This document shows, piece after piece, positions 1 to 3,000 of a stretch of DNA of 13,048 nt. The stretch is from a virus (lineage: Duplodnaviria > Heunggongvirae > Uroviricota > Caudoviricetes). The first letter of the stretch is position 1, and the number at the start of each line of letters is the position of its first letter. The DNA is taken from the IMG/VR virus record IMGVR_UViG_2695420476_000004; one strand, 5' to 3'. A program made the position numbers.

Positions 1-3000
1 CCTCAAAAACACCATCATACACTAAATCAGTAAGTTGGCAGCATCACCAGCCTTCTTGAGGCTACCACCTGTTTTCAGGTGTCATTCAGACGTGATTTGC
101 CCCAGATTGGGAAAGCACGCTTTTTTCTCAGCTATCGTCCTCTTATTTTGCCGTTACATTTCTTTTTGCATTCTAATGATTAATTTACAATAATAATATC
201 GGTAATTATTGAGTAATAATAAATTAATTATTGCAAATGTAATTTAATTCCATCTTCGCGTTATATTCCAATCTTTAATCTCCGCATGGAACAAGTTGCA
301 TGCGTGACTATATTAAGACGACTTATAACCACCAAAACATTTGCTTTGCAAGCAAAAACAGTGACCATTGACTCTAAGAAAATTCCGATCTATTGTTAGG
401 GTCATCAAAGTTACTTAACAGTATTCCGAAATGAAAATACAAAGCAAGCTAATTGTCTTATTAAACATTATTATTGCATTTATATTATTTGAGCTTTTAG
501 CTCAAAAATTTGGTTTGAGTACATTATTTTAAAGCAAGATAAACAATATCGGGCACTCTAGTTTTTATAATTAACAATTAAACGTCCATAAAATGTTATT
601 TACTTTTCTTCGCTATTGTCATATCTTAATATAGTGGCTTACGCCACTCTACTTTCATCACATTTTGTACGTTTATGTACTCGCCATGAAGCTCTTTCAT
701 GGCGATTTTTTATTCTTAATCCAAGAACATACTCCCTACCTATAGCAAAATCACTTTTTTAACAAAAGAATAACGTATTTAGGTAATCATTACGAATTTA
801 CCCTATAGGTGCTACTGGCCATTCAATATCCGGTGCAGTTGATGTATCAACACGGTTCAGCAACACCCGATACTTTTTCCAAGCTTCCAGCAACAAGGTT
901 TCTTTCTCCGTTGCGATCTCCAGATCCACAGCATCCTGAAGCGGCGCTATATGCTCACTGGCTACCTGCATCAGGCTGTTTTTTGTTTCTTCCGCCTCCC
1001 GGATCCGGAACAGTTTTTCTGCTTCCGTATCCTTCACCCAGGCTGTGCCGTTCCACTTCTGAAACTCCCCTTCCGGGGATAACCAGGTGACATTTTCCGG
1101 TAATGAGCCGAGTTCAGAAATAAATAACGCGTCGCCGGAAGCCACGTCATAAACCGTTTTACCCCGATGATCTTCAACGAGATGCCACGATGACTCATCA
1201 CTGTTGAAAACAGCCACGAAACCAGCCGGAATATCTGGCGGTGCAATATCGGTACTGTTTGCAGGCAGACCTGTATGAGGCGGAATATATGCGTCACCTT
1301 CACCAATAAATTCATTAGTTCCGGCCAGCAGGTTATAAATTTTTATGGTCCGTGCTTGTTCACTCATTCTGAATGCCATTATGCGAGCCTCACAATATAG
1401 TTAAATGCGATGTTTTTGACGGTGTTTTCCGCGTTACCAGCAGCGTTAACGGTGATGGTGTGTCCATGTGAACCAATCGCAACAGAGTGCGTATGAGCAC
1501 CAATACCGACAGTATGCGCGTGTGCACCCGCAGATGCTGCTGTGCCGGACAGTGAGTGTGTATGGTTTCCTTCTGAAGATGATTTACCTACCCATTGGGA
1601 GGTGCCACTGGTTAATGAGCCACTGATACCAACCTGATTAGTCCCGCTAACTTGAGTACTCCCTGCCGGAAACATTCCAGTAGGTTGACTCCCGCTATTC
1701 GTTCTGGGCCCAGTCTGACTATGTTGGTGGGCCCCAGCTGAACTTGTAGAGCCGCTCAGACTGTGCGTATGCGCCCCGGTGTTATTCGTGGATTTAGTGC
1801 CGTAATCAAACGACGATGTGGTTTTCGTCCCCAAATCCGTACTGGATGCGCTGGCGCTGTGGGTGTGCGATTTAATGCCATCCTGTTCCTGAGACAATAC
1901 GGCACGACCACTGGCGGGCTTGCCCTTAATCGTCCAGCCACGCATATCAGGGATCACGCCTGACGGATAAGCGGCTGCAAGTTTCGGGTAAGCAGATTTG
2001 TCAAAAGTCTGCCCCTGCATCAGGGCATAACCAGACGGAACGGTATCTGATGGCCACGGGATTGGTGCACCGACTGGATAAAACTCTGCAGGAGGATGAG
2101 CCGAGGTGTAAAGCTGCGCCCACGGCGACCAGTTTGCGTCGGTCGTATCCCGTCGTGAACGAATAAATGCCGGAGCATGAGCACCGCTTGTACCACTCCA
2201 GCCGATGAGTAACTCACCTTCGCCAACGGCTGTCATCCCTTTCAGGTGAATGATATTTCCATACGCTGTTGGATATCCGTTGTTATACACCTCGTATAAC
2301 TCAAGACCTGCTGCCCCCTGCGTATTGTCTGTCAGCGCGGCTACCCGACCTTTTGAAGCCAGATTAACTGATGATACTGCTGTTCCACCTGACGGTAGCG
2401 CCCCGATCTCTGATGCCGTTGGCTTATTTCTGGAGTTATAGTCCCTTCGCCAGCCAGGTGAATAATCTGTTCCGTGATTAATATAGGTAAACTGGGCGTT
2501 GGTTGTTCCGCCACCGCTGGATGTGGTCGGAGTGGTAATGCGGATCGTCATCGCTGACTTTATCCCCATTACTTCAATGACAGCTCCGGCGAGATGAATA
2601 TTACCGCAGCCAGTATCAGTAATGATTTTATTATTGCCATAAGACCAGGAACCCTTGCACATCCAGTATGGATGGTTAAATGCTCCCTGAGAATCCAGCC
2701 ACTCGATAAACTGTGCAGTCGTCCAGTTTCCTGTTGTTGTGCTTACTGACCCACCGAAGGCACGGCAGGCACCAATATTTTTCGTAAAGGTGTCTTTGCC
2801 AGGGATATCCGCACCGTTCTGATCTTTCTGCAGACGTTTCTCAGCATTGTCATTGGCTGCTTTTACTGCCTTTGGCGTTGCCGCCAGCGTTTCAGACGTG
2901 CTGTTGGTCGCGCTGCTTAGCTGGATTATCCCTTTCTGTGCTGTCGTTGCATCCTGTGCGGTGTATTTCCCGTTAGCCAGGTCATACGCGGCCTTAACGG

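Follow-up and report, generated by a model that had tools for sequence, protein, structure and literature searches.

A contig-end IS1 in non-coding prophage cargo DNA, probably one ancestral insertion followed by deletion on its IRR side

Insertion sequences of the IS1 family, in the IS1A/IS1B-type form found in E. coli and Shigella, are the closest described counterparts of the element that borders the locus described here. They usually duplicate 9 bp of their target. Deletions that start at an IS1 end are classical as well and are known from the gal region in the literature of the 1970s; such IS1-promoted adjacent deletions keep the IS and leave no target duplication behind. Two further systems touch the DNA next to the element, namely the attP arm of phage lambda with its tI/sib region and the prophage-borne YdeO/GadX-like AraC regulators of E. 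coli, which form the Psr and PatE group. Short-read assemblers are expected to end contigs a few tens of bases into a multi-copy element. In S. sonnei, the median number of IS insertions per chromosome is 286, and in the three Shigella species examined, IS1 accounts for a median of 42–59% of all IS insertions (PMC7373316).

The window, i.e. the whole stretch of DNA that was analysed, is the entire draft contig CXBU01000118.1 (13,048 bp; assembly GCA_001257875.1). CXBN01, which belongs to the same accession block as CXBU01, is an S. sonnei draft. The features of the left part of the window are as follows:

1..48, minus strand: terminal 48 bp of IS1, the IRL (insA-proximal) end, by exact identity to annotated IS1 copies.
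49..57, unstranded: AGCCTTCTT, the first 9 bp of the flank, which would be one target-duplication copy if the insertion were simple.
49..133, plus strand: the 85 bp on the outer side of a conserved 193-bp block, a fossil att arm that prophages with different cargo share.
88..126, plus strand: imperfect hairpin (88..120/121) followed by a T6 run (121..126) at the outer block edge, from fold and conservation.
134..797, unstranded: AT-rich cargo-region spacer of 29% GC with no supported ORF, from composition, annotation and family searches.
681..711, plus strand: intrinsic terminator with an 11-bp stem and a T-run, from a terminator scan and a hairpin z of -5.4.
798..1379, minus strand: tail fibre assembly gene (193-aa ORF; Pfam Caudo_TAP on the identical product), the last structural gene and the start of the cargo region.

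The first 48 nucleotides are the reverse complement of an IS1 left end, as had been recognised from the sequence alone. They are identical at 48 of 48 positions to annotated IS1 copies in L001 and in L002 (6001..6048), and minus-strand positions 26..48 match the 23-bp IRL (GGTGATGCTGCCAACTTACTGAT) without a mismatch. None of 200 shuffled sequences gave an IRL match, even when up to three mismatches were allowed. In L001, the IS1 transposase CDS begins at the element end facing window position 49; hence, the abutting end is the IRL and insA is directed away from the window. As the window is the whole contig, the IS1 end is at the same time the contig end, with the assembly halted inside a multi-copy repeat. 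The opposite end of the contig runs into a transposase too, in that case of the IS3 family, as judged from sister assemblies. The exact J-fragment product (482 aa) is without a record, and the exact J protein occurs only on CXBU01000118.1 itself.

Ten complete genomes (L005–L014), one of which is S. sonnei 75/02 (CP019689), are 99.8–99.9% identical to the window over 1..6544. All ten, together with L001, carry a full IS1 of 768 bp (767 bp in L011) at exactly this junction, with the IRR GGTAATGACTC(C/G)AACTTATTGAT. In relatives, the element is annotated as [quoted passage not shown], shows the Pfam families Zn_ribbon_InsA, HTH_Tnp_IS1 and DDE_Tnp_IS1, and agrees with the IS1 family in length and in the insA/insB' arrangement with its programmed frameshift, just as the window does in its exact 48-bp end. 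That an IS1 copy sits just beyond the window start, as proposed earlier, is therefore very probable, the left flank and the full-length element being taken from these relatives rather than seen in the window's strain. The same junction, with an IRL side identical to that of the S. sonnei-type genomes, occurs in 79 of 5,426 complete E. coli genomes; a scan across one genome per species gave no match. The element itself is in no way unusual, and its position at a contig edge is ordinary, known biology: short-read assemblies of Shigella-type genomes break at multi-copy IS1, and this is why the contig ends here.

The placement of the element in the cargo region of a prophage is supported. It lies in the dispensable b-type region of a lambda-like prophage, with the tail fibre assembly gene (798..1379, whose product is annotated as "tail fiber assembly protein" in the relatives) on one side and, on the other, an AraC-family cargo gene outside the window. 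The latter is matched by the YdeO model over its full length with 148 bits and resembles the prophage YdeO/GadX-like regulators in this match and in its location among prophage cargo. It differs from them in falling below the equivalog cut-off of 348 bits and in carrying a 1-bp frameshift in the S. sonnei-type genome L007.

The DNA directly beside the IRL is the outer part of a 193-bp block that corresponds to positions 7121..7313 of the serU prophage L002. There, the block adjoins a 62-nt 3' fragment of tRNA-Ser (serU), which is identical to the 3' end of K-12 serU and represents the attachment core; in serU-prophage genomes, the block has the cargo on one side and, on the other, the serU fragment next to yodB. 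It is 97–99% identical in five prophages with differing cargo (nleC, DUF1076 and other tail fibre assembly genes), and the similarity stops exactly at window position 133. The insertion point lies 108 bp from the serU core, and neither the inner 108 bp nor the core is present beside IS1. Phages ev099 and mEp332 contain, in addition, 278 bp of captured yodB–serU intergenic DNA. The integrase next to the window's prophage is of the IntS type and lies next to argW; hence, the block is a fossil in this prophage.

A simple insertion would have left a second copy of AGCCTTCTT on the IRR side. No such copy was found in the relatives compared: S. sonnei-type genomes read CACCCAATT on this side, E. coli O78 strain 3 reads GCCAATAAG, and the left junction predicted for a simple, duplicated insertion is present in 0 of the 5,426 complete E. 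coli genomes. The 8–9 bp target duplication that had been anticipated around the element is thus absent, in which the locus departs from the usual behaviour of the family. As a control, a separate IS1 in the same AT-rich stretch (L017) does carry an 8-bp duplication. The uninterrupted sequence is found in 831 of the 5,426 genomes, and IS1-free relatives include the phages ev099 (L004) and mEp332 and the serU prophage L002. Compared with the two phages, the S. sonnei-type genomes lack 743 bp on the IRR side and the E. coli allele lacks 550 bp. The left junction falls at position 3257 of ev099 in the former and at 3450 in the latter; the E. coli-type left junction is present in 102 genomes. The S. 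sonnei-type deletion took the inner att arm, the serU fragment and the 278 bp of captured chromosomal DNA and spared just 15 bp upstream of the AraC-family gene, the resulting order being IS1, ...CCACCCAATT, AraC-family gene. The one plausible effect, which lies outside the window, is the loss of the upstream region of this YdeO-like regulator, a gene that is already a pseudogene in L007. In LR213458.1 (L014), a fimbrial usher fragment lies beyond the same IS1, on its far side. Hence, the left flank is not fixed within the group of close relatives, and IS1 is a rearrangement breakpoint in at least one of them. When complete E. coli genomes were searched for the left junction of the S. sonnei type, 130 matches appeared; they were rejected as two-piece joins rather than the junction; two of these were followed and proved to be unrelated IS1 insertions nearby.

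The sequence-only reading had also suggested that IS1 truncated the prophage. This holds only in a small sense, in that a non-coding deletion of 550 or 743 bp in the cargo region accompanies IS1. The pattern resembles IS1-promoted adjacent deletions in that the IRL junction is fixed, the IS is retained, no target duplication is left, and the extent of the IRR-side loss varies by lineage; a constant IRL junction combined with IRR junctions that vary is what textbooks describe for IS1-associated deletion series, and it is a possible lineage marker. Recombination of two IS1 copies lying in direct repeat would, in this case, be indistinguishable from that mechanism. An intermediate allele of the series was not found among the 5,426 complete E. 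coli genomes. The phenomenon as a whole is already known biology, and its importance extends little beyond annotation.

At a probability of roughly 85%, the locus represents a contig-end IS1 in non-coding prophage cargo DNA that goes back to one ancestral insertion with one or more deletions on the IRR side. IS1 would have inserted once between positions 48 and 49, and one or more IS1-associated deletions would then have proceeded outward from the IRR end, either by intramolecular transposition or by recombination with a second IS1 copy. Both insertion and deletion would have been tolerated because the att arm was no longer in use. The direction of change is assumed herein, deletion from an ev099-like ancestor being parsimonious, not proven.

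The alternative that survives best, though we consider it unlikely, is that at least two independent IS1 insertions occurred at a hot-spot nucleotide, each with its own deletion, and that no single inherited insertion exists. In L007, the junction IS1 is 1 nt away from another IS1 of the same locus but 6 nt away from the E. coli allele; this would also fit an independent hot-spot insertion or gene conversion. In addition, IS1 has entered this AT-rich stretch independently at least twice more, each time in the orientation seen here (L017, L018), which marks the stretch as an IS1-prone target. Each Shigella species has, moreover, expanded its own resident IS1 variant (PMC7373316). Against this, both groups share the junction nucleotide and the orientation, both left flanks fall within the same ev099-like segment, and no target-duplicated allele, which would mark a fresh insertion, was found among the 5,426 complete E. 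coli genomes. The two alleles differ at 6 of 768 positions in IS1 and at 4 of 667 in the adjacent flank; these matching divergences fit one old insertion.

A second alternative sees in the 48 bp a leftover solo IS1 end, or an artefact of assembly at the contig end, in a strain without a complete IS1. The contig does stop at position 1 with the body of the element unseen, and sister drafts of the same project join repeated tail modules inconsistently, which makes misassembly possible. However, the complete element stands at this junction in all ten of the genomes that are near-identical across the adjoining 6.5 kb, and an end a few tens of bases into a repeat is the expected behaviour of short-read data. 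The same junction also recurs in 13 further IMG/VR virus contigs, most of them with the junction at the contig end, among which only one shows an additional left flank, again of the S. sonnei type. We regard a remnant or artefact as very improbable and retain the inherited, complete IS1.

The remaining alternative concerns a disrupted gene. It had been proposed that IS1 interrupted a plus-strand cargo gene and left its 3' end at 49..183, and the observations behind this proposal are reproduced: two plus-strand frames are open over 49..183/193, and the GC content drops from a near-normal 48% in 49..133 to the 29% of the spacer. When sequences of equal composition are simulated with a first-order Markov model, however, two or more frames are open in ~7% of trials, which makes the open frames weak coding evidence. 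When the flanks are rejoined by means of the IS1-free sequences of ev099, mEp332 and L002, the sole ORF across the site has 55 codons; it starts 33 bp upstream of the insertion point and thus has 11 codons on that side, where otherwise AT-rich DNA and the tRNA fragment are found and no gene body. Its ATG is replaced by ATA in four of seven relatives (L026–L029); a T6/T7 indel throws these four out of frame as well, and L028 contains one more inserted nucleotide. Past window position 133, prophages with other cargo show unrelated sequence, so the C terminus of the ORF is not conserved. The product has no match in PHROG or NCBIfam and only a chance-level one in Pfam (E = 0.2). In ev099, the site falls within gp28, which RefSeq lists as a hypothetical protein of 55 aa, but the ORF is absent from the PGAP annotation of every E. 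coli relative inspected and from that of mEp332. Since the reconstructed flank has no coding similarity, the gene-disruption reading fails on the terms that the sequence-only reading had itself set, and we hold it, in spite of the open frames, the GC content and gp28, to be the least probable of the three alternatives. The insertion point is non-coding and no gene is interrupted; no cargo gene is to be scored as inactivated by this IS1 insertion.

The flank that remains may nevertheless hold small non-coding elements. At the outer block edge, the hairpin at 88..120/121 and its T-run are kept in all relatives, with changes mostly at unpaired positions. The fold of 49..135 is not significant (z = -1.7 and -1.9 on the two strands), and a simple terminator scan does not pick up the 88..126 structure; a terminator-like reading is thus based on position and conservation. 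The int gene of an intact serU prophage reads toward att, and read-through would meet 88..126 in this orientation. By analogy with lambda tI/sib, 88..126 is hence a candidate terminator for integrase read-through. The locus resembles the lambda attP arm with tI/sib in having a conserved block of ~190 bp beside the att core that ends in a hairpin and a T-run, in the orientation of this structure toward integrase read-through, and in the variable cargo that follows immediately. It differs in showing no sequence similarity to the lambda arm, in the fold z of -1.7, and in the fossil state of the block in the window's prophage. In the inner 108 bp, an 18-nt sequence is directly repeated at a spacing of 55 bp, with 16 of 18 positions identical; the two copies could be arm-type sites. 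The serU module may be the scar that an old aberrant excision, or recombination with a serU prophage, left behind in the free-living phages ev099 and mEp332.

The spacer at 134..797 contains no annotated CDS in the PGAP-annotated relatives, and its small ORFs match no Pfam or PHROG family. The plus-strand terminator noticed earlier at 681..711 is real as a motif: the scan returned two terminator-like sites, compared with 0.3 expected, and the hairpin occupies 681..705. It is unrelated to the IS1 junction, at which a search of 1..1400 against Rfam found nothing. The region 575..720 folds with -34.6 kcal/mol (z = -7.15), and, judging from this predicted fold, the terminator probably forms the 3' end of a small structured transcript of ~575..711. 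An Rfam match of 592..719 to MicC reached 22.8 bits against a gathering score of 90, and membership was rejected. The region ~575..711 may encode, on the plus strand, a putative unannotated prophage small RNA with a weakly MicC-like 5' end. Phage records that match 49..800 number only four, each at least 98.5% identical, and 12 distinct sequences differ at 24 columns with no informative covariation. Taken as a whole, the picture of an att-arm/terminator module of serU-integrating lambda-like phages that has 49..133 as its outer edge, preserved in ev099 and mEp332 together with 278 bp as a yodB–serU fossil, and of a small RNA in the spacer is tentative, and we think it somewhat doubtful. If it were true, the IS1 would still be an ordinary one, and 49..133 would be more than inert DNA.

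The first 48 nucleotides of the window (1..48) are the left end of IS1 in reverse complement, as the sequence-only reading had proposed. They agree at 48/48 positions with the termini of IS1 copies annotated in two E. coli chromosomes, and the 23-bp left inverted repeat (IRL; GGTGATGCTGCCAACTTACTGAT) lies exactly at 26..48 on the minus strand, a match found in 0/200 shuffles with up to three mismatches allowed. In both annotated records, the transposase CDS begins at the end abutting window 49; hence, the abutting end is the IRL, and insA points away from the window. Since the window is the complete contig CXBU01000118.1 (assembly GCA_001257875.1), the only record of its exact J protein, the IS1 end is also the contig end. 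The opposite edge (13000..13048) lies just before a 121-codon C-terminal fragment of the tape measure gene; in sister assemblies from the same project (L019 and L020, 8555..8574), the sequence there continues immediately into the gene for an IS3-family transposase. At both ends, thus, the contig breaks at insertion sequences or repeats.

Window 1..6544 shares 99.8-99.9% identity with ten complete chromosomes of 4.7-5.0 Mb, including CP019689 of Shigella sonnei 75/02, and the window very likely derives from S. sonnei. A full IS1 of 768 bp (767 in one) occupies exactly the window's junction in all ten, which makes the proposed IS1 copy immediately past the window start very probable. The median S. 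sonnei chromosome carries 286 IS insertions, and in a comparison of three Shigella species the median share of IS1 among IS insertions is 42-59% (PMC7373316). The case is that of a known element with known behavior in a genome type rich in IS1.

In nine of the ten relatives, tail genes, a tail fiber gene, a tail fiber assembly gene, and a 750-bp AT-rich spacer lead up to IS1, which is followed by an AraC-family gene, IS3-type fragments, an IntS-type integrase, and tRNA-Arg(CCT), that is, argW. This order supports the placement of IS1 in prophage cargo DNA. Past argW lie a formate/nitrite-transporter-family and an MlaA-family gene, which we take, by K-12 positions, to be yfdC and mlaA. In LR213458.1 (L014), the same IS1 (reverse-complement 8484..9251) is bordered on its left, at its right inverted repeat (IRR), by a fimbrial usher fragment and a chaperone-usher cluster in place of the AraC-family gene, an IS1-mediated rearrangement with the element used as breakpoint. 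Because of this difference, the far flank is not to be assumed for the window strain.

The sequence from window 49 onward exists without IS1 in the free phages ev099 (L004) and mEp332 (L003) and in an E. coli prophage at serU (L002). In the rebuilt sequence, a segment of 62 nt that matches the 3' terminus of tRNA-Ser serU without a mismatch is located 108 bp upstream of window 49. In prophages truly integrated at serU, this segment is the junction adjoining yodB, and the integrase is found at the opposite end, beside intact serU and transcribed toward it. The 193 bp that adjoin the tRNA segment are common to prophages with unrelated cargo (97-99% identity), and the cargo beyond varies (nleC, DUF1076 genes, or a different tail fiber assembly gene). 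The similarity ends exactly at window 133, and the GC content is 48% in 49..133 versus 29% in 134..797. Hence, 49..133 makes up the outermost 85 bp of a conserved arm of the attachment site; farther in, the arm has an 18-nt direct repeat, which may represent arm-type sites. The outer edge of the arm carries one further feature:

88..120, plus strand: imperfect hairpin followed by T6 (121..126), in the orientation that integrase read-through would use

The likeness to lambda tI/sib is one of position and no more than an analogy, as the fold lacks significance (z = -1.7).

Since ev099, mEp332, and the S. sonnei-type prophage have other integrases, the arm is a fossil in all three, which would explain why insertion and deletion are tolerated there. 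In both phages, 278 bp with 97% identity to the yodB-serU intergenic region of K-12 precede the serU segment. Together, the captured DNA and the 62 nt of serU span L004 3551..3890 and L003 2051..2388 within the cargo region. In such free-living lambda-like phages, this resembles a scar left either by an aberrant excision or by recombination involving a serU prophage.

The suggestion that IS1 interrupts a plus-strand gene, with 49..183 as its 3' end, is not supported, and no gene is disrupted at the site. Approximately 80 bp are indeed GC-normal but belong to the attachment arm, and composition-matched simulations produce two open frames spanning 145 nt in ~7% of cases. The sole ORF across the site (hypothetical gp28 in ev099) has 55 codons and starts 33 bp upstream. 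Of seven relatives, four have ATA instead of ATG at its start; all four also show a frame-shifting T6/T7 indel, and one of them has an extra 1-nt insertion. The 3' part of the ORF falls outside the conserved block. No significant match to PHROG, Pfam, or NCBIfam was obtained for this or other small ORFs of 1..800, and the expected coding similarity of the rebuilt flank did not emerge from these databases.

The junctions were scanned in 5,426 complete E. coli genomes, and the flanks of IS1 were compared in relatives.

Junction alleles and IS1 flanks
Uninterrupted 100-bp junction: 831 genomes
Window-type IS1 junction: 79 genomes
E. coli O78-type left junction: 102 genomes
Predicted simple-insertion left junction (...CCAAGCCTTCTT then IRR): 0 genomes
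IRR-side flank, S. sonnei-type genomes: CACCCAATT
IRR-side flank, E. coli O78 strain 3: GCCAATAAG
IRL-side flank, both alike: AGCCTTCTT

The anticipated 8-9-bp target duplication is, thus, absent from the flanks in relatives, as is the duplicated allele from the E. coli genomes scanned. On ev099, the IRL junction falls at 4000|4001 for both alleles. The IRR junction is at 3257 for the S. sonnei type (743 bp missing) and at 3450 for the E. coli allele (550 bp missing). A fixed junction at one IS end with variable loss at the other, the IS being kept and no duplication present, is the classical picture of an IS1-associated adjacent deletion, which the two alleles together match in each of these respects. 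Recombination between two directly repeated IS1 copies is an alternative route and would yield an identical product.

Between the S. sonnei-type and E. coli alleles, the junction IS1 differs at 6/768 positions and the adjacent flank at 4/667, which fits a single old insertion. Re-insertion at a hot spot, or gene conversion, is also conceivable, given that the junction IS1 of the S. sonnei-type L007 differs by only 1 nt from a second IS1 copy of the same locus and that the same AT-rich stretch took at least two more IS1 insertions, one with a clean 8-bp duplication. These independent insertions, in other E. coli genomes (L017 2963..3730; L018 3028..3795), share their orientation and lie in the AT-rich stretch upstream of the AraC-family gene; the former carries the duplication AGATTTTC inside captured yodB-serU DNA, and the latter is joined to DNA adjoining ysgD and corA.

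The S. sonnei-type deletion took the inner att arm, the serU fragment, and the captured chromosomal DNA, leaving only 15 bp upstream of the 247-codon AraC-family gene; this gene and the deleted DNA all lie outside the window. The gene is oriented as insAB' and aligns end to end with the YdeO model at 148 bits, below the 348-bit equivalog cut-off. This YdeO/GadX-like gene is undamaged in both ev099 and E. coli O78 strain 3; in L007 (12115..12857) it has lost 1 bp at nt 410, is called as two ORFs, and is a pseudogene.

The plus-strand terminator at 681..711 is genuine as a motif. Located 630 bp from IS1, it is more likely the end of a small transcript of its own than a sign of transcription at the junction. 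The AT-rich spacer contains the following:

431..532, plus strand: 33-codon ORF for a hydrophobic peptide (MKIQSKLIVLLNIIIAFILFELLAQKFGLSTLF)
566..571: TATAAT, read from the sequence, ahead of the structured stretch
575..711, plus strand: strongly structured stretch ending in the terminator (-34.6 kcal/mol, z = -7.15)

The structured stretch is a candidate unannotated prophage small RNA. Rfam gives a sub-threshold MicC-like alignment (22.8 bits, E ~0.8) with a 5' GUUAU...UAUUGUCA motif in common, and the 12 sequence variants are too alike to test covariation. The peptide, reminiscent of small membrane toxins, has no family match, and its ORF has no obvious ribosome-binding site.

Within the tail fiber assembly gene, 838..1036 (minus strand) is a full-length match to Rfam IS009 (RF02111; 218 bits, gathering score 117), a family of type 'Gene' and not an insertion sequence. 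Elsewhere in the window, a complete J gene (6799..10278) is followed by the initial portion of a lom gene, from 6731. In 5114..6731 (minus strand), this lom start is fused at ~6545-6550 to a second J gene, of which the C-terminal 482 codons are present, after which come lom, the tail fiber gene, and the tail fiber assembly gene. The fusion is either a real nested or tandem rearrangement of tail modules or a repeat-induced misassembly; complete S. sonnei-type genomes have one tail module, and the sister drafts show differing joins. The lom homologue at 4561..5043 (minus strand) has 160 codons here and in complete S. sonnei-type genomes versus 199 in E. coli relatives and is probably truncated.
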